From NCBI GenBank assembly GCA_963791045.1, contig CAWBQK010000005.1, positions 1-64,000 on the forward strand: a DNA stretch of 64,000 nt, in the 5' to 3' direction. The position numbers were made by a program, and so were the translations under genes. Source of the stretch: Candidatus Latescibacterota bacterium. Its GTDB lineage: Bacteria; Krumholzibacteriota; Krumholzibacteriia; WVZY01. This document shows, piece by piece, positions 14,054 to 54,405 of this stretch. Numbering within the stretch: position 1 is the first letter of the stretch; each line of letters begins with the position of its first letter. The notes under the pieces are model-generated. The model was not told the origin of the DNA. It saw only the letters and a list, made by a program, of their open reading frames with translations, and did not search any database.

Positions 14054-15928
14054 ATGAAGCGGTTCCTCGCATTCTCGCTAATCGCCCTCGCGCTTCCGTT
14101 GTGGCTCGGCTGCAGCGGAGAGGACAGCGCCCCCTCGGACAAGGCCCAGGTCGCCCAGGACACCGACGCCGCCGAGGAGGAAATGACTCTCCCTGAACAC
14201 ATAACCAACTACGATCTCAAACTCCAGCTGAGAAAGTTCGCGAAGGTCGACATCGAGTACGACGAGTCGGTGCTTTCCGCTCCTGAAAAAGAAGCCCTCG
14301 GCAAACTCGTCAACGCCGGCCGCATTATGGACGACATTTTTTTCCGCCAGGTATGGGCAGGCAACGAGGATTTCAAAAAGGAATTCGACACGGTTCACAT
14401 TTGGGCTCATCAACACCCGTTCACCAAACTCGGTGAAGAAGTCGACTTGATCCACAATTTGAATCGTTATTACAACATCAACTTCGGCCCGTGGGATCGT
14501 CTGGAGGAAGACGCACCGTTTATCACGACGACACCAAAACCCAAAGGCGCAAACTACTACCCCGAAGATATGACGGCGGAAGAGTTCGATAATTTCCTCG
14601 CCGAGAACAAGGACATGGTAGAGGACTTCCGTGGGTACTTCACAACAATAAGACGAAAAGACGGCAAGCTCACCGCCGTACCCTACAGCGTGGAGTACAA
14701 AGACCTTCTCGAGAAAGCCGCCACACTCCTCCACGAAGCGGCGGACATTCTCACCAAACCAGAAAACAAAGCGAAATTCGCGTCGGGTACCGACTACACA
14801 TCGCTTGCAAAATATCTCAAGAGCCGCGCGGATGCTTTTTCATCGAACACATACCGCGACAGCGACATGAACTGGATGGACGTCAAAAACAACATCATCG
14901 ACGTGACCATCGGCCCGTACGAGGTCTACGAGGACGCCCTTTTCGGGTACAAGGCGGCGTTTGAAGCGTTTATCGCTATTCGCAACCCGGCGGACAGCAA
15001 GAAGCTCGAGGGCATCAAACGCTATCTGCAAAAACTCGAAAACGCACTCCCGATCCCCGACGAACACAAGAATCCGAACCGCGGTTCAGAGTCGCCGATC
15101 AGCGTCGTCGATCTCGTTTACTCGGGCGGCGACACCAAGGCCGGCGTGCAAACCATCGCTTTCAATCTGCCGAATGACGAATACGTCCGCGAGGCCAAAG
15201 GCAGCAAGAAGGTCATGCTCAAGAACATCTCGCGCGCCAAGTTCGACAAGATCCTTACCCCCATCGCCGAACAAGTTCTCGATCCCAGCCAGATGGACCT
15301 GGTGGTTTTCGAAGCGTATTTCAACAATACATTAATGCACGAACTCTCGCACGGGCTCGGCCCGGGAACGATCATGAAGGACGGCAAGGAGACCACGGTC
15401 AACCTCGAGCTCAAGGAACTCTACTCGTTTATCGAGGAAGCCAAAGCGGACATCCTCGGTCTCTACTGCACGAACGTTCTTATCAAGGAAGGATTCCTCG
15501 ACAAAGAATTGGGCAAGAAGGGATACGTTTGTTTTCTGCCGGGGTTCTTTCGCTCGATCCGGTTTGGCGCCACGTCGGCACACGGCAAGGCGAACATGAT
15601 GGAGTTCAACTACCTCCGCGAGAAGGGCGGGATCGTTCTCGATCCCGAGACGGACAAGTTCCATGTCAACGTGGACAAGATGCCCGCGGCGGTCGAGGCG
15701 ATGTCGAAGGAGCTTTTGATGCTCCAGGCACTTGGCGATTACGATGCGGCCAAAGCCTTCATCGAAAAATACGGCAATACGACCGACGACCTCGAACGGC
15801 TTCTTGCCAAGCTCGACAAGATTCCCGTCGATATCGAACCGATCTTTGCAGCGGAAGATTATCTCGAGGATAGCCGCCGCCGGTACGCTCATCCGAAGAT
15901 CGAGGACGATCACGGGCACACTCACTAG
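14054..15928 (+). CDS. Peptidase M49 (dipeptidyl-peptidase III-like) zinc metallopeptidase, lipoprotein
   Basis: AGGAG RBS, lipobox WLGC, GANYYPEDMT, IGPYEVYED, AFNLPND, MHELSHGLGP, EEAKAD. Confidence 0.9.
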   Translation: MKRFLAFSLIALALPLWLGCSGEDSAPSDKAQVAQDTDAAEEEMTLPEHITNYDLKLQLRKFAKVDIEYDESVLSAPEKEALGKLVNAGRIMDDIFFRQVWAGNEDFKKEFDTVHIWAHQHPFTKLGEEVDLIHNLNRYYNINFGPWDRLEEDAPFITTTPKPKGANYYPEDMTAEEFDNFLAENKDMVEDFRGYFTTIRRKDGKLTAVPYSVEYKDLLEKAATLLHEAADILTKPENKAKFASGTDYTSLAKYLKSRADAFSSNTYRDSDMNWMDVKNNIIDVTIGPYEVYEDALFGYKAAFEAFIAIRNPADSKKLEGIKRYLQKLENALPIPDEHKNPNRGSESPISVVDLVYSGGDTKAGVQTIAFNLPNDEYVREAKGSKKVMLKNISRAKFDKILTPIAEQVLDPSQMDLVVFEAYFNNTLMHELSHGLGPGTIMKDGKETTVNLELKELYSFIEEAKADILGLYCTNVLIKEGFLDKELGKKGYVCFLPGFFRSIRFGATSAHGKANMMEFNYLREKGGIVLDPETDKFHVNVDKMPAAVEAMSKELLMLQALGDYDAAKAFIEKYGNTTDDLERLLAKLDKIPVDIEPIFAAEDYLEDSRRRYAHPKIEDDHGHTH

Positions 15929-17745
15929 TACCCAATTGCCTGCCCGTTGCCACGGGGATCCGAACATCCAACAATCCGGCCGTCGCCATTATCGCGGCGG
16001 CCGTTTTGTATGAGGATCGCCTGGATGTTGGCGATGGGCCCACGAACGATCACCTTGTGACCAAACCTCTCGAGCGCCTCAACGACCGGCGCGGCCAGCG
16101 CACCCTCTTCGATCGCTATCTGGTCGGGTAGGTACTGCGCGTGTATACGCCCTTCCGCAACGGCCCTCTCCAGCGGCATGTTGAAATCAATCACATTCGA
16201 CATCACCTGCAACACCGCCGTCGGGATGGTCGACCCTCCCGGGGCGCCGACGACCATAAACGGCTCGCCGCCACGCAGCACGATCGTCGGCGTCATCGAA
16301 CTCAACATCCGTTTGCCCGGCGCGATAGCATTGGCGTCGCTCCCAACGAGTCCGTACAGGTTTGGATACCCCGGCTTGATACTGAAATCATCCATCTCGT
16401 TATTGAGAAGAAAACCAGCCCCGGTCACGGTAACACCCGACCCGAACCATCCGTTGAGCGTATAGGTATTGGAAACGACATTTCCCCACCGATCGATGAT
16501 CGAGAAATGCGTCGTCTCTTCGCGCTCGCCCTTGCGCACCGGCGCGCCCCCAAACGGCACCGTCACACCCGGCGGCGTCAAATCGAGCTTGTCGAGCTCA
16601 CGCACGGGAAGCACACGCGACATGTCGATGAGGCCGTCAAGTTTTTCGATATAAGCCGGATCGGTCAGCCCTCGCGTTGAGACGGGGTAATGATCGGCAT
16701 CACCCATGTAGAGCGCGCGCAGACGATAGGCGATCTTCGTGGCTTCGGTAAAGAGGTGCACATGATCTTTCGAGTGATACCCCATCTTCCCAACGTTTCG
16801 CTTCTCGAAAATCTGAAAGATCTCGGAGAGGATAATACCGCCCGATGACGGGAGCGGTGACGTAAGAACTTCATAGTCGTGGTACTTGAATGTCACGGGC
16901 TCACGGAACTTCGGCTCATACGAGGCGAGACTTAATTTCGATACCTGTCCCCCGCCGCGTTCCATTTCGGCCGCGATGAGATCGGAAGTCTCCCCAACAT
17001 AGAAATCTTTTGCGCCTTCGGTCATAATCCTGTACAGCGTTTTCGCCAGATCGGGTTGACGGAGAATATCGCCGGGCGTAAGCCCGGGATCGATGAAAAT
17101 CTTCCGCGTCTCCGGATGCGACGAGAGAAGATCGTGTTTCTTGTTAATCCGTCCGACCAAAAAGTCGTCGACGGCAAACCCATCTTCGGCAAGCCTCCAC
17201 GAATACGAAAGCACATCGCCCCAGGCGAGCTTGCCAAACCGGGCGTGCGCCATCGCCATTCCCGCCACGGTCCCGGGCACACCGGCGGAGAGATGCCCAA
17301 CTGTGCTCTTGCCTTCGACGACGTTCCCCAGAGGATCGAGATACATGTCGCGCGTGGCCGTCTGCGGCGCCGTTTCGCGATAGTCGATAAAATGCGTCTC
17401 GCCCTCGGCAAGATGAACGAGCATGAACCCGCCGCCCCCAAGATTTCCCGCCTGCGGATATGTCACGGCAAGCGCGAACGAGACCGCCACGGCGGCGTCT
17501 ACAGCATTCCCACCACGGCGAAGAACATCGGCGCCGACCGCCGATGCAATCGAGTCGGCCGACACGACGACAGCGTTGTCTATGACGGCGGTTTTGCCCG
17601 GCGCGCTAACTTCGACGGACGACGCCACGGGCTCTTCCTGCCGGACGTCCGAACATCCCGGCGCGAGGGTTCCCGCAAAAACAAAAATCGCCACGGCAAG
17701 AACGGCCGCGGCGAGAGACATGGGGTTTATGTGTTTGTTTCTCAT
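15925..17745 (-). CDS. ggt: Gamma-glutamyltransferase
   Basis: GGNAVDAAVA, GNLGGGGF, IDYRETAP, catalytic ETTHFSI, NNEMDDFS, PGKRMLSSMTP, SDPR. Confidence 0.95.
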   Translation of the reverse strand: MRNKHINPMSLAAAVLAVAIFVFAGTLAPGCSDVRQEEPVASSVEVSAPGKTAVIDNAVVVSADSIASAVGADVLRRGGNAVDAAVAVSFALAVTYPQAGNLGGGGFMLVHLAEGETHFIDYRETAPQTATRDMYLDPLGNVVEGKSTVGHLSAGVPGTVAGMAMAHARFGKLAWGDVLSYSWRLAEDGFAVDDFLVGRINKKHDLLSSHPETRKIFIDPGLTPGDILRQPDLAKTLYRIMTEGAKDFYVGETSDLIAAEMERGGGQVSKLSLASYEPKFREPVTFKYHDYEVLTSPLPSSGGIILSEIFQIFEKRNVGKMGYHSKDHVHLFTEATKIAYRLRALYMGDADHYPVSTRGLTDPAYIEKLDGLIDMSRVLPVRELDKLDLTPPGVTVPFGGAPVRKGEREETTHFSIIDRWGNVVSNTYTLNGWFGSGVTVTGAGFLLNNEMDDFSIKPGYPNLYGLVGSDANAIAPGKRMLSSMTPTIVLRGGEPFMVVGAPGGSTIPTAVLQVMSNVIDFNMPLERAVAEGRIHAQYLPDQIAIEEGALAAPVVEALERFGHKVIVRGPIANIQAILIQNGRRDNGDGRIVGCSDPRGNGQAIGY

Positions 17746-17808
17746 AGTCAGAGCCTATCAGTTATTGAAGGAGTTCTCAAGACCGGCCGGGTGGCGCCCC
17801 AAAACAAC

Positions 17809-17843
17809 AAAAAAACGGCGAGTGACACATGGCCACTCGCCGT
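17809..17843 (-). terminator. Intrinsic terminator of the ArsR operon
   Basis: Minus strand ACGGCGAGTG-9nt-CACTCGCCGT followed by a T-run. Confidence 0.8.
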
Positions 17844-17859
17844 ACCCCTGAGCCAACAG

Positions 17860-17906
17860 GGCTCTATCAAACTCTCGGCGGACACGCCGCCGGTTTACCA
17901 GATGCC
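17860..17906 (-). promoter_or_regulatory. Candidate bacterial SECIS after the FmdB UGA
   Basis: UGA-GGCAUCUGGUAAAC-CGGCGG-CGUGU-CCGCCG-AGAGUUUGAUAGAGCC. The apical loop with GU starts 20 nt after the UGA. Confidence 0.55.
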
Positions 17907-18104
17907 TCAGGTGGAGCCGGCGCACTGCGGGCCGGCCGACGGACAACTCGCCTCGGACTGTCCACCCTTGGCGAACGTACTGAACATAATCTTGCCTTCT
18001 CCCCCGCAATCGGGGCACGCGATCGGTTCTTCGCGATCGGCCATGTTGCGAAGTTCAAAAAACTCACCTTCGCATTTTTCACATTTGTATTCGTACAACG
18101 GCAT
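17895..18104 (-). CDS. FmdB-family zinc-ribbon protein, candidate selenoprotein (UGA at 17907-17909)
   Basis: MPLYEYKCEKC...CPDCG. Tail SCPSAGPQCAGST-UGA-GIW-UAA. Confidence 0.85.
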
Positions 18105-18130
18105 GGTTACCTTCCCTGTTTTTCTTTTGA

Positions 18131-18493
18131 TCAGCACATCCCGTTCGCGCGTCTCGCTCGTTCGAGATTCGCGATCTCTTCCCATGTATATCGATTGTCG
18201 GTTGTCACGTTTTCTTTTGCGCATAACGAATCCATAATCTGCGTAAGCGCCGGGTCGGACAGCGAGAAAACGACTTCGACGCCGTTTCGCTCGGCCCTGA
18301 CCAGTCCTTCGGAACGAAGCACCTTGAGGTGCTGCGCCACCGATGACTGGGGAACCCCCAACGTCTCCGCTATAAATGTCTGGGTGCACGGCTGGTTGCG
18401 AAGCCCGCACACCATCTCGAGCCGAAGCGGGTGCGACAGCGCCTTGAGCACGCCGGCCGCACGTTGGAATTTATCTTTCAATGAATCGCTCAT
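18131..18493 (-). CDS. ArsR/SmtB family transcriptional regulator
   Basis: LKALSHPLRL, IAETLGVPQSSVAQHLKVLR..GLV..ERNG. Confidence 0.93.
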   Translation of the reverse strand: MSDSLKDKFQRAAGVLKALSHPLRLEMVCGLRNQPCTQTFIAETLGVPQSSVAQHLKVLRSEGLVRAERNGVEVVFSLSDPALTQIMDSLCAKENVTTDNRYTWEEIANLERARRANGMC

Positions 18494-18660
18494 CGCGAGT
18501 CCTCTTCCCGCTTTTTTGTTTTCTCATCCGGCCCGACCGGCCGGTCACATGAAGCCGTTGCTCAGGTCGGGACGCCGAGCCGCGGGAGAACCCATACAAT
18601 GAGGATCATGTATACGGCGATGCCCACGGCGGCGAAGCCAAACGTTTTTAGCGCTTCCAT
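18490..18660 (-). CDS. Small single-pass membrane protein, candidate selenoprotein (UGA at 18562-18564); not in the ORF track
   Basis: MEALKTFGFAAVGIAVYMILIVWVLPRLGVPT-UGA-ATASCDRPVGPDEKTKKREEDSR*. The read-through stop overlaps the ArsR start (ATGA). Confidence 0.7.
18523..18561 (-). promoter_or_regulatory. Candidate bacterial SECIS
   Basis: UGA-GCAACGGCU-UCAU-GUGA-CCGGCC-GGUCG-GGCCGG-AUGA: 6-bp GC stem, GGUC-type loop 23 nt after the UGA, lower UCAU/AUGA stem. Confidence 0.65.
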
Positions 18661-18712
18661 CTCGTCAACCACATCCCTAACTTGTTAAAAATCAAACATA
18701 ATTACTTTATCG

Positions 18713-18748
18713 TTGTATTATGATAATACAAACCAGCGAATCTGTCAA
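18713..18748 (-). promoter_or_regulatory. Sigma70 promoter overlapped by a palindromic operator (likely ArsR site)
   Basis: TTGACA (18748-18743)-17bp-TATCAT (18725-18720). Perfect 8-3-8 inverted repeat TTGTATTA-TGA-TAATACAA at 18713-18731. Confidence 0.75.
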
Positions 18749-18789
18749 GGGGAGGCTCACATATTTTTGAAAGAGTTGAACGGGGGGGG

Positions 18790-20031
18790 CTATTCTTCCT
18801 CGGCGCCGAAAAACACACGCTCGAGGAACTGCACCGAATAGGGCTGTTTCTCCAGCTCATTGTAGGAGAATAGCGAGTAACCTATTACATTTTCGTGCCT
18901 TAGGAGTGACACCGAATATCCGAGATATCGATCGCGGCCGTCGTATACGGGGAGCCCCAGGATATACCGTGCGGGGCTGATCATTCGGCTAATCCGGGTC
19001 GTGAGCGCCACCAATTCGCCGGGTTCGTAGGTATAGGCCATCGGAACGACAAAATCGACCAGGTCGTCCTGGATCCATTTGACCCAGTTCTGCCCCTTCT
19101 CTACCCGGGCGCGTTCCGCCTCGGGCACAACGGCGGCCGAAAGCGCAACATCCCCGATCGCAGCCCGTATCGAGCGGATGAGGGAATCGACCTGCGCGGA
19201 CCGCCACTCGACGAACACACTGTCGAGAAACGCCGCCGTCCCAGGCTTCTCGAGCCACGCGCCCGCCGGATCGCCGGCAACAGCGGGGGTGGACGGCAAG
19301 AACTCGAACGGGTCGACGCCGTAACGCAGGGCAAAGGCCGTCCTCTGGTCCTCGCTGTAGTCGAAGCGGTTGTTGGGGTAACGGACGTAGTCGAGATGGA
19401 TTCCATCGACGGGGTAGCGTTCGACGATCTCGGCGATGACGGCGGTCGTATGAGCGCGGACCCCTGCGAAGCCCGGCGACACAAAGTAGCCCGCCATGTT
19501 CTCACCGAGCCACGCGCTGAGCGGCTTCTCATCCATGCGAACACCATCGCGGTCCGCCATGAGCCACTCGGGATGCTCGCTGACAATGTGATTCGGCGGC
19601 GGAGACGCTTTGGGATCCGACCACACGTAGTACGTGTTGATCCACGCGTGGACGGCAATCCCCGCCTGGTGGCATCGCCGGAGCATATAATCAAACGGAT
19701 CGAAATCATCGATCGGCCGTCCGAGCTTCTGCCCTTCCGGCTCGAGCGACGACCGGTAGTACGCATCACCTCGCCCCCGCACCTGGACGAACAGGAGATG
19801 AAACCGCGCCCGCGTCGCATAGTCGACGGCAAGGTCTACATCTTCCTTTGAACTAAGCGAGTATCGAACAACCCACGCGGCTCGTATCTCGTCCTTCGGC
19901 ACGACGGGCGAGTTAAGGAGGAATGTCTCCAGATACGCCCCCCGCCCCTGTGCTTTCGACAAGCAAGGGAGCGTCAATAGGACCAATGTTACGATGATGC
20001 AGGTTCTCGACAACATATGATTAGTATGCAT
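18790..20031 (-). CDS. Glycoside hydrolase-like family 10 (GHL10/YddW-type) protein
   Basis: EIRAAWV, LFVQVRGRGDAYYRS, FDPF, VHAWIN, VDGIHLDYVRYP, QNW..W...DFVVPMAY, plus a signal peptide. Confidence 0.88.
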   Translation of the reverse strand: MHTNHMLSRTCIIVTLVLLTLPCLSKAQGRGAYLETFLLNSPVVPKDEIRAAWVVRYSLSSKEDVDLAVDYATRARFHLLFVQVRGRGDAYYRSSLEPEGQKLGRPIDDFDPFDYMLRRCHQAGIAVHAWINTYYVWSDPKASPPPNHIVSEHPEWLMADRDGVRMDEKPLSAWLGENMAGYFVSPGFAGVRAHTTAVIAEIVERYPVDGIHLDYVRYPNNRFDYSEDQRTAFALRYGVDPFEFLPSTPAVAGDPAGAWLEKPGTAAFLDSVFVEWRSAQVDSLIRSIRAAIGDVALSAAVVPEAERARVEKGQNWVKWIQDDLVDFVVPMAYTYEPGELVALTTRISRMISPARYILGLPVYDGRDRYLGYSVSLLRHENVIGYSLFSYNELEKQPYSVQFLERVFFGAEEE

Positions 20032-52429: not shown

Positions 52430-52506
52430 TGGCAGGCCCGGCAGGAATCGAACCTGCAACCCCCGGTTTTGGAGACCGGTGCTCTGCCTAATTGAGCTAC
52501 GGACCT
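52430..52506 (-). tRNA. tRNA-Trp (CCA)
   Basis: AGGTCCG...CCGGT-CTCCAAA-ACCGG...TTCGATT...CGGGCCT-G-CCA. Confidence 0.96.
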
Positions 52507-52625
52507 GCGGATGCTGCCTAACGAGAGCCGATCGTCCCAGCTCCGCAAAAAATGTGTCCACCGTTGTCGGCCTTGCCCTCATCCCGCGAGGCGAAGAGTC
52601 GAGCTCAGCCAACTTTTTCTTCTAC

Positions 52626-53820
<1,195 letters not shown>

Positions 53821-53844
53821 GTGCCTCCCTCCGGAGATTGACGC

Positions 53845-53920
53845 TGGAGCCCTCGACCGGAATCGAACCGGTGACCTTTTGCTTACCATGCAAATGCTCT
53901 ACCGACTGAGCTACGAGGGC
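53845..53920 (-). tRNA. tRNA-Thr (GGT)
   Basis: GCCCTCG...TTTGC-ATGGTAA-GCAAA...CGAGGGC-T-CCA. Confidence 0.96.
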
Positions 53921-53975
53921 GAAACACAGTATTTCGAATGAGTAACACTTACAACAAACCAACTAACAAAAAAAA

Positions 53976-54052
53976 TGGAGCGGGAAACGGGATTCGAACC
54001 CGCGACTCTCAGCTTGGAAGGCTGATGCTCTAGCCAGCTGAGCTATTCCCGC
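53976..54052 (-). tRNA. tRNA-Gly (TCC)
   Basis: GCGGGAA...TCAGC-CTTCCAA-GCTGA...TTCCCGC-T-CCA. Confidence 0.96.
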
Positions 54053-54072
54053 CCACCGTAATTGCAAAAAAG

Positions 54073-54157
54073 TGGTGGGGAGGGGAGGATTTGAACCTCC
54101 GAAGGCTTCGCCGACAGATTTACAGTCTGTTCCCTTTGACCACTCGGGAACCTCCCC
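54073..54157 (-). tRNA. tRNA-Tyr (GTA)
   Basis: GGGGAGG...ACAGA-CTGTAAA-TCTGT, long variable arm, CCTCCCC-A-CCA. Confidence 0.96.
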
Positions 54158-54330
54158 GGCACTTGTCTACCGCAATCCAATCAAACGGAAAGAGACACAA
54201 AAACCCAGCGACTTTAAAGCCGTGGGGTATCGTATCCCTCCACTTACAATTTGGTGCTTTTAAACTAATTGAAGAGAGATTATAAAAACAGCCCGCTCGG
54301 TTTTTATATCAGGCTCTATCGCTCAAATTT

Positions 54331-54405
54331 TGGAGCTGGCGAAGGGACTTGAACCCCCAACATCCTCATTACAAATGAGGTGCTCTACCATTGAGCTACG
54401 CCAGC
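54331..54405 (-). tRNA. tRNA-Thr (TGT)
   Basis: GCTGGCG...CCTCA-TTTGTAA-TGAGG...CGCCAGC-T-CCA. Confidence 0.96.

Follow-up and report, generated by a model that had tools for sequence, protein, structure and literature searches.

Two predicted selenoproteins and an ArsR-family regulator in one operon of a Krumholzibacteriota genome

Small selenoproteins have been found together with a regulator of the ArsR family before. In NCBIfam models and in a 2026 review (PMC13188914), the Tso three selenoprotein operon joins small, unrelated selenoproteins to the ArsR-family protein TsoR. Selenocysteine (Sec) is also known in the FmdB family of zinc ribbons: an FmdB-family selenoprotein from the GOS metagenome has a CxxU knuckle (Zhang and Gladyshev 2008, PMC2398784), a 2022 review gives the motif of FmdB selenoproteins as U/CxxU, and Table 1 of the 2026 review, which counts 119 prokaryotic selenoprotein families and subfamilies, has an FmdB entry with UxxU under TIGR02605. 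Here we describe a locus in a 64,000-nt stretch of DNA (the window; positions 1 to 64,000 of contig CAWBQK010000005.1, assembly GCA_963791045.1) from a Candidatus Latescibacterota bacterium placed in the Krumholzibacteriota. On the minus strand, the predicted operon runs from a promoter with a palindrome through a gene for a small membrane selenoprotein, arsR and a gene for an FmdB-family selenoprotein to a terminator. As far as comparison of genomes can show it, the in-frame UGAs of both small genes are Sec codons. The membrane protein is almost certainly a selenoprotein and the FmdB protein very probably one; the reading as a whole, a two-selenoprotein ArsR operon with a tentatively proposed thiol or sulfur function, we consider likely.

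In-frame UGA codons of the two small genes

The gene for the membrane protein (18490..18660, minus strand) starts at ATG 18660. GTG 18672 is an alternative start; the orthologues have in common the N-terminus ME(A/S/T)LK, which in the window begins at the ATG. The open reading frame (ORF) reads MEALKTFGFAAVGIAVYMILIVWVLPRLGVPT, then UGA (18564-18562), then ATASCDRPVGPDEKTKKREEDSR, with 23 codons between the UGA and the second stop, TGA 18492-18490. An earlier, sequence-only reading of this DNA had noted a 56-aa membrane protein with an in-frame UGA after an ACC codon, and this is what we find. The protein has one transmembrane (TM) helix and the motif LPRLGVPT-U-ATASC; by the positive-inside rule, given its K/R-rich tail, the U-x4-C motif would lie just after the helix on the cytoplasmic face.

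Several lines of evidence suggest that this UGA is translated. When the read-through protein was searched against six-frame translations of 61 genomes (the source and 60 relatives), each of the 18 best rows (E <= 0.014, the source genome among them) contained a single TGA and extended beyond it. A profile of 18 members, searched at E <= 0.01 in 208 genomes of the phylum, matched 151 of them, and every match listed contains at least one TGA; this statement covers the matches listed, beyond which there are 14 more, and a few of the weakest (E near 0.005-0.01) may be spurious. By family, the matches fall in 10 of 12 genomes of f1, 1 of 23 of f2, 87 of 91 of f3, none of 7 of f4, 39 of 43 of f5, 3 of 12 of f6, 4 of 10 of f7, 5 of 8 of f8 and the single genome of f9. 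Pro26 and the Sec column are invariant in the alignment, and Gly29 and a Cys at Sec+5 are present in at least 90% of the rows. Sequence beyond the UGA is thus conserved, contrary to one of the refuting outcomes named in the earlier reading.

We fetched 48 loci and kept 35 distinct ones under a pattern that required a Cys 3-7 residues after U; L031 and L035, without such a Cys, were dropped from this 35-locus set. The first stop of the membrane gene is TGA in 35/35 loci. The second stop varies (TGA 20, TAG 12, TAA 3), and the extension between the two, 15-39 codons long, usually reaches the next gene: of the 27 loci with FmdB directly next, 23 leave a gap of 0-10 nt to its start. The two small genes travel together across the phylum (34/35 loci).

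In the window, the FmdB gene (17895..18104, minus strand; ATG 18104) lies 26 nt beyond the end of arsR. It reads to …SCPSAGPQCAGST, then UGA (17909-17907), Gly-Ile-Trp and TAA (17897-17895); the zinc ribbon with an in-frame UGA after ACC, followed by GGC ATC TGG TAA, is thus present as first noted. The protein belongs to the FmdB family (TIGR02605, 57 bits against a cut-off of 31.3; PF09723, Zn_ribbon_8, 48.6 against 34.4), as do all 16 members scanned. It has CxxC...CPxC knuckles, in which C8, C11, C30 and C33 are invariant, and a Gly/Ser/Cys tail that carries the Sec. Among the first 18 loci the FmdB gene stands just downstream in 16, with TGA as first stop in 16/16. In the 35-locus set it adjoins the membrane gene in 34, one copy being truncated where its contig stops; the 33 complete ones all have TGA, 1-4 sense codons and a second stop of mixed type (TAA/TAG/TGA). 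The extensions are of the types G-I/V/L-x, x-P-F(-R), G, A-x and G-G-C, and within a type the changes are often synonymous (GGC/GGA, ATC/ATT/ATA, CCG/CCC, TTT/TTC, AAC/AAT). Thus orthologues keep TGA and never have TAA or TAG at the position in all matches listed, in 35/35 membrane genes and in 33/33 FmdB genes.

A word-based search gave 27 FmdB homologues, and the 14 close ones retrieved all end …G(S/P)T, exactly at the TGA; two of the close homologues are labelled 'Candidatus Latescibacterota bacterium' metagenome-assembled genomes (MAGs) by NCBI. Two more distant proteins that were retrieved have Cys-rich tails with no alignable Cys/Sec pair, and the only other FmdB-like gene of the source genome ends with TAG and has no Cys tail. 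The suspicion that standard gene callers truncate these genes is borne out, as database entries of both proteins end at the UGA.

The same kind of word-based search found nothing for the membrane protein, and neither its Sec nor its Cys forms match a Pfam or NCBIfam family; in the ESM Atlas its sole match is an unnamed Planctomycetota cluster (0.88). An exhaustive profile search of 1.84 billion representative proteins succeeded, with 1433 matches at E <= 0.001 and 37 at E <= 1e-10. We retrieved 48 of these, and all but a few full-length ones have Cys at the Sec column: they are proteins of 45-109 aa with a single helix and the motif …LPxLG[VI]PT-C-MSGxC…. Four of the 48 have W and one has G at the column, as expected from a caller that uses another code, and another four stop after …GVPT, which truncation at TGA would explain. 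Homologues with Cys in place of the UGA, which had been proposed as a check, therefore exist in number in other phyla. On this alignment the membrane protein represents, in Sec form, a widespread C-x4-C family that has no name, and the Sec and Cys forms make a classical pair.

Two matches to the membrane profile stand apart. P0081 (208 aa) has the CMSGxC membrane module fused to a complete thioredoxin domain with WCGPC, and the fusion may be genuine or an artefact of gene calls joined in error. In the repetitive P0083 (592 aa), eight stretches match through the word …VLPKMGVRT…, apparently a fortuitous hit on a tandem repeat.

The Sec machinery that the earlier reading had asked for (selA, selB, selC, selD) is found in the source genome, with selA (460 bits), selB (374 bits), selD (373 bits, with its own in-frame TGA in the motif SCAGUAAK) and tRNA-Sec (66 bits against a gathering score of 47) all above curated cut-offs. 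The selB gene lies on the same contig (C5, 72318-74156, minus strand), about 8 kb past the end of the window. Nearly the whole phylum has selA (200 of 208 genomes, and all 125 high-quality ones), which makes co-occurrence of the operon with selA uninformative.

A reader might ask whether UGA is instead read as an ordinary amino acid, or whether the genes are decaying and their frames open by chance, and the few database entries with W or G at the UGA column would suit this. However, TGA ends half of the long frames of this genome (of 3073 stop-to-stop frames of at least 250 codons, 1524 end with TGA, 803 with TAG and 746 with TAA) and is therefore a normal stop here, on which ground we rejected a reassignment of UGA. 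Moreover, the UGA stands at one fixed column with conserved flanks in all matches listed from the 151 genomes, the full Sec machinery is present, the hairpins described below covary, and the column holds Cys rather than Trp or Gly in other phyla. We regard this explanation as extremely improbable.

Hairpins downstream of the UGA codons

A bacterial Sec insertion sequence (SECIS) is a hairpin shortly after the UGA with a G in its apical loop. As first noted, hairpins are present 3' of both UGAs. The first, CCGGCC ggucg GGCCGG (18528..18544, minus strand), lies within the coding sequence of the membrane protein, and its loop starts 26 nt after the U of UGA; the second, CGGCGG cgugu CCGCCG (17876..17892, minus strand), lies in the 3' untranslated region (UTR) just past the TAA of the FmdB gene, with the loop starting 23 nt after the U.

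In each orthologous sequence we took the perfect hairpin of highest stability among those in the 60 nt that follow the TGA. In the membrane gene the loop starts 21-29 nt after the U of UGA in 34/35 loci and mostly reads GGA, GGG or GGUCG; in the FmdB gene it starts at 19-26 nt in 31/33 loci and reads GUC, GGUC(G), CGUGA or GGA. Most stems differ between lineages yet stay paired, and no U tract follows the hairpins, except in the outliers L026 and L072. With a loop start of 19-29 and a G in the first two loop bases taken as a pass, 31/35 membrane loci pass at dG <= -6.5 and 19/35 at dG <= -8, as do 31/33 FmdB loci at either threshold, whereas among the long TGA-ending frames of the source genome, our control, 35/1522 and 19/1522 pass. 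Because so few control frames pass at dG <= -6.5 and both features recur in relatives, the hairpins of the window are more than chance.

An alignment of the 35 post-UGA regions of the membrane gene points the same way. In an 8-bp helix that we named by hand, pairing holds for 69.7% of the cells and drops to 24.6-38.6% when the 3' side is moved 1-3 columns along; the first figure is depressed by the same-family loci, whose register is two positions off. Seven of the eight pairs have changed on both sides and none of 500 shuffles reaches the covariation score, a control that overstates significance for related sequences. RNAalifold reported no structure on a MAFFT alignment of the post-UGA regions because two hairpin registers are mixed in it. 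Gaps in the MAFFT alignment of the FmdB 3' regions ruled out a count of pairs, and for these regions we relied on the per-sequence search and the genome control instead. The selD gene of the source genome has a hairpin of the same geometry as those of the operon (GCGCGG-cgggu-CUGCGC, loop at +22).

Since the FmdB Sec stands 1-4 residues before the end of the protein, its SECIS lies in the 3' UTR. We considered that the FmdB hairpin might be a terminator and rejected this, because it lacks a U tract behind it and the operon has its own terminator further downstream. Based on its position, loop and recurrence, the hairpin is a predicted bacterial SECIS acting from the 3' UTR, and would be a natural example of a rare arrangement.

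A second alternative is that the membrane protein alone contains Sec, that FmdB ends at its TGA, and that the hairpin has another RNA role such as stability, processing or attenuation. Just 1-4 codons follow the UGA, no Cys/Sec pair is seen among homologues, TGA is the commonest stop of the genome (1524/3073 long frames), and the loci are related, which means that 33/33 does not count 33 independent events. On the other hand, in those 33 loci the first stop is always TGA and the second, 2-5 codons on, varies between TAA, TAG and TGA; the hairpin has the distance and G-rich loop of those in the membrane gene and selD (31/33, against 35/1522 in the control) and has no U tract behind it, the terminator being a separate one downstream; changes in the short extension are synonymous; and the other FmdB-like gene of the genome, which ends with TAG, has no such tail. 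We judge this alternative improbable. By every computational criterion for a selenoprotein discussed here (machinery, conserved UGA, conservation beyond it, hairpin and Cys homologues) the membrane protein is predicted to be one. FmdB agrees in machinery, conserved UGA and hairpin and has no Cys homologue among those found, and its conservation beyond the UGA spans just 1-4 codons.

Three further observations concern Sec and its machinery elsewhere in the genome. A glutaredoxin-like ORF (L041; contig C2, 76036-76233, minus strand) has an in-frame TGA in the motif …GKDT-U-PYT…. Its match to NF041211 (UXX-star family 2) reaches 43 bits where the cut-off is 100, and the ORF probably encodes a further selenoprotein. 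Some of the 19 long TGA-ending frames with a SECIS-like hairpin at the right distance (dG <= -8) may be further truncated selenoprotein genes. Finally, a tRNA cluster (Trp, Thr, Gly, Tyr, Thr) at 52430-54405 of the window adjoins an ORF resembling a translation-factor GTPase (53329-53784), which matched the N-terminal part of the selB model; the region looks like ordinary housekeeping.

Transcription signals, the regulator and a possible function

The sigma-70-type promoter that had been proposed (18720..18748, minus strand) is present, with -35 TTGACA at 18748-18743, a 17-nt spacer and -10 TATCAT at 18725-18720. It has 11 of 12 consensus matches in a promoter scan, which found two promoter-like sites where shuffled sequence gave 0.8 on average. 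The elements CCCTTGACA ... TATTATCAT also stand upstream of the orthologous gene in the same-family relatives L022, L023, L024 and L032, and the -35 and extended -10 boxes are kept in same-family relatives. The -10 box is covered by a perfect 9-1-9 palindrome, TTGTATTAT c ATAATACAA (18713..18731), which contains the shorter 8-3-8 palindrome of the earlier reading and is a candidate ArsR operator. At the other end, the noted intrinsic terminator is found (17806..17843, minus strand): a stem-loop at 17843-17815 with a 12-bp stem (8 GC pairs) and a 5-nt loop, then a T run. Directly downstream of it lies a 606-aa ORF (15925-17745, minus strand) that by eye resembles gamma-glutamyltranspeptidase, and a similar N-terminus also follows the operon in relatives L022 and L025. 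No Rfam family scored above noise in 17750-18800.

All contigs from RNA libraries of two studies fall inside 17861-18701. One of 732 nt, from a relative about 95% identical, extends from within the membrane ORF as far as FmdB and retains the first TGA. The contigs come from four RNA runs, and every sequencing run contained less than a third of the sampled words; they hint weakly at a transcript bounded by the predicted promoter and terminator.

The arsR gene (18131..18493, minus strand) encodes a repressor of the ArsR/SmtB family of 120 aa (PF01022, HTH_5, 42.2 against 22; NF033788, 74.9 bits against a cut-off of 55). Its ATG at 18493 overlaps the second stop of the membrane ORF (TGA 18492-18490) in the form ATGA, the coupling recognized in the sequence-only reading. 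An ArsR gene was found by pattern search within 1 kb in 24/35 loci, and these are of two types. In seven loci arsR lies between the two selenoprotein genes, and Cys29, Cys36 and Cys91 are kept in 7/7; in 17 it lies upstream of both, and the regulator has a conserved Cys in the same early helix and an IC-x3-C motif, the second Cys of which aligns with Cys91. In the window, and in all but one of the seven others arranged in this way, the start of arsR and the second stop of the membrane ORF overlap, as ATGA in L021-L024, by 8 nt in L025 and, by coordinates, by 8 nt in L031 and L032; in L033 the start lies a few bases downstream.

This arrangement raises the idea of a selenium-status sensor, in which arsR is translationally coupled to Sec decoding. 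The stop that overlaps arsR is reached only by ribosomes that insert Sec, so that repressor synthesis would rise with Sec-decoding capacity; with scarce selenium, ribosomes would release 69 nt upstream and repressor synthesis would fall. In the other gene order the same coupling would join the membrane ORF to FmdB (gap 0-10 nt in 23/27 loci). If this were true, expression of two obligate selenoproteins would be tied to selenium supply. We put forward the sensor, and likewise its counterpart in the other gene order, as speculative and improbable.

A possible function of the operon is suggested by the neighbours of the Cys forms. We fetched 25 Cys-form loci with the exact word GIPTCMSG, taken from an eight-row alignment, and their taxonomic range is accordingly a lower bound: MAGs labelled Planctomycetota (Thermogutta, Schlesneria, Planctomicrobium), Deltaproteobacteria/Polyangia, Acidobacteria, Nitrospirota and Omnitrophota, with Myxococcota also named in the range of the family (Myxococcota/Deltaproteobacteria). 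We scanned 49 flanking ORFs chosen from 116. A thioredoxin upstream and a DsbD_TM-thioredoxin fusion downstream occur in five loci (L077, L079, L082, L084, L086). A metallo-beta-lactamase (MBL)-rhodanese fusion, of the persulfide dioxygenase-rhodanese kind, stands with TauE/SafE in L076 and L089 and with a pyridine-nucleotide-disulfide oxidoreductase in L080 and L088; the BigR operon is composed of genes of this sort, blh-like (MBL-rhodanese) and TauE. Others have a protein like CoA-disulfide reductase with a rhodanese domain (L090, L093, L094), a YgaP-like TM protein (L075), two thioredoxins (L099), DUF302 and PIG-L deacetylase (L083; PIG-L also in L098), cytochrome bd (L081, L091), AcrB or HlyD efflux parts (L090, L092, L093, L096) or MerR (L098). 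The common theme in these 25 loci of other phyla is sulfur and thiol redox, and the thioredoxin-fused database protein P0081 fits it.

The regulator is consistent with this theme. Its best solved relatives are NmtR, an unnamed ArsR (8qkf), YgaV, SqrR and BigR, and of its four cysteines (Cys29, Cys36, Cys91, Cys120), Cys29 (LEMVCGL) aligns with a Cys of SqrR (LMIMCYL) and of YgaV (LLILCML). Because the neighbours of the Cys forms are sulfur and redox genes and ArsR has SqrR-like cysteines, a thiol or reactive-sulfur function is the best supported, and we propose it tentatively, by analogy.

In the mechanism that we propose, SelB would read each UGA with the help of the hairpin 19-29 nt downstream. 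ArsR would bind the palindrome over the -10 box, its putative operator, and autoregulate the operon, a step towards which we lean, and would respond through Cys29 and Cys91 as a pair, like SqrR, BigR and YgaV, which sense persulfides and oxidants. The membrane selenoprotein would hold its U-x4-C motif at the cytoplasmic face of the membrane, and FmdB, a cytosolic zinc ribbon with a flexible Gly/Ser/Cys/Sec tail, could reach that motif. The two may form a membrane-associated selenol/thiol relay that handles reactive sulfur species (or those of selenium, or electrophiles) on the inner side of the membrane.

A different function is conceivable, in which a soft metal or metalloid (Hg, Cd, As, Cu) is what the module detects or renders harmless, ArsR is a metalloregulator, and the U-x4-C motif and Cys/Sec tail are metal ligands in a transfer like that of MerT and MerP. 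The best solved relative of ArsR by sequence is the Ni/Co sensor NmtR, the family model that it matches is named 'metalloregulator', and it has four cysteines, of which Cys36 would lie close to where E. coli ArsR has its arsenic-site cysteines. Some Cys forms are flanked by efflux genes (RND or HlyD) or by MerR, and known selenoproteins in the 2026 review include a MerT-like Sec protein and metal-binding Sec tails (PMC13188914). Nevertheless, the operon has no transporter, reductase or metallochaperone gene, most Cys-form neighbours are thiol or sulfur redox genes, and SqrR, BigR and YgaV, whose Cys pairs are like the conserved one here, do not sense metals. We consider a metal function, and the ligand role of the motif and tail that goes with it, unlikely. 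Of the earlier proposal of a selenium-dependent stress or metal-sensing module, itself offered as an inference, the Sec part stands on the machinery, the conserved UGA and the hairpins, whereas for the metal part the evidence favours thiol/sulfur redox.

A number of points weigh against the operon as we read it, that is, as a pair of selenoproteins under ArsR control with a thiol or sulfur function. The case for Sec insertion comes from comparative genomics. For the membrane protein, no Cys form is among the matches listed within the phylum (151/208 genomes), so that its Sec/Cys pairing rests on other phyla. For FmdB, conservation after the UGA is thin and its 1-4 codons are too few for a firm test; the proposed check for homologues with Cys at the UGA came back negative, as none of 36 candidates scored has an aligned Cys and the 14 close ones all end at the TGA; and two of the 33 loci (L026, L072) show no clear hairpin at the usual distance in our simple search. 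The perfect palindrome is not kept in relatives, which have AT-rich imperfect dyads at the same place. RNA libraries can contain DNA, and the contigs are no proof of transcription or of a single transcript. ArsR falls below the curated cut-offs for BigR (NF040642, 49.6 against 155) and TsoR (NF045707, 41.5 against 115), and Cys91 lies just outside the stretch aligned to SqrR. Some neighbours of the Cys forms, efflux and MerR genes, suit a metal reading, and a pattern search found an adjacent FmdB or ArsR gene in 0/25 of these loci; functional inference from their neighbours may thus not transfer to the operon.

Comparison with described systems

Among the closest described relatives of the regulator are SqrR, BigR and YgaV (PDB 6o8k, 3pqj, 3cuo), which belong to the same fold family (E 1e-10 to 3e-11). 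Their sensing Cys in helix alpha-2 aligns with Cys29, whereas the second conserved Cys of the window protein, in its last helix, is unaligned. In addition to scoring below the BigR equivalog cut-off, and below those of SdpR, PagR and CmtR, ArsR has two further cysteines, and its operon, unlike SqrR- and BigR-type systems, has no sulfur-oxidising enzyme. The Tso operon is alike in layout and differs in its parts: ArsR is far below the TsoR cut-off, and no TsoA, TsoB, TsoC, TsoX or TsoY model is among the matches of either selenoprotein.

The FmdB selenoprotein of the GOS metagenome is of the same domain family (TIGR02605, PF09723), is likewise small, and shares with the window protein a lack of known function. 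It has Sec in the zinc knuckle, whereas the window protein has four knuckle Cys and Sec in the tail, 1-4 residues before the end. In this respect FmdB resembles UXX-star families 1 and 2, KCU-star and SaoC (Haft and co-workers), listed in Table 1 of the 2026 review (PMC13188914), which also have Sec near the C-terminus, a SECIS beyond the stop and truncation by gene callers; the same review suggests a ligand or redox role for C-terminal Sec tails. These families are nevertheless unrelated to FmdB. The glutaredoxin-like NF041211 matches another locus of the source genome and not the FmdB gene, and no UXX-star-type model is among the best 25 of 63 families for the 16 FmdB members or among the 16 families that the window protein matches. 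Neither does NF041197 (dual-CxxC small selenoprotein) match at the operon locus.

The LPxLG[VI]PT-C-MSGxC family agrees with the membrane protein in length, single helix and motif, U replacing the first Cys in the window. It differs in having Cys for Sec and, by pattern search of the 25 loci, no FmdB or ArsR neighbour, and it has no Pfam or NCBIfam model and no name.

We find neither selenoprotein form in the catalogues consulted. Table 1 of the 2026 review (PMC13188914) has no single-pass membrane protein with PT-U-x4-C and no FmdB with a tail Sec, NCBIfam release 20.0, which includes curated selenoprotein models, gives no selenoprotein-family match for the window proteins, word searches within the deep-Sep and BSepDB papers gave nothing relevant, and none of the listings from literature searches pointed to a description of either form. 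Both are thus uncatalogued within the reviews, NCBIfam and literature searched, Haft and Tolstoy 2025 not being among these.

The locus is no new kind of system. It amounts to two predicted additions to the bacterial selenoproteins, set in a selenoprotein operon: a membrane-anchored U-x4-C protein and a tail-Sec form of the FmdB zinc ribbon, both of them mis-annotated wherever they occur. Most selenoprotein families mix Sec and Cys forms, and a Sec form that extends across a phylum (151/208 genomes) with no Cys version among the matches listed is unusual. The pairing with ArsR and the sulfur-redox neighbourhoods of the Cys forms provide a testable starting point for FmdB/COG2331 and CMSGxC membrane proteins.

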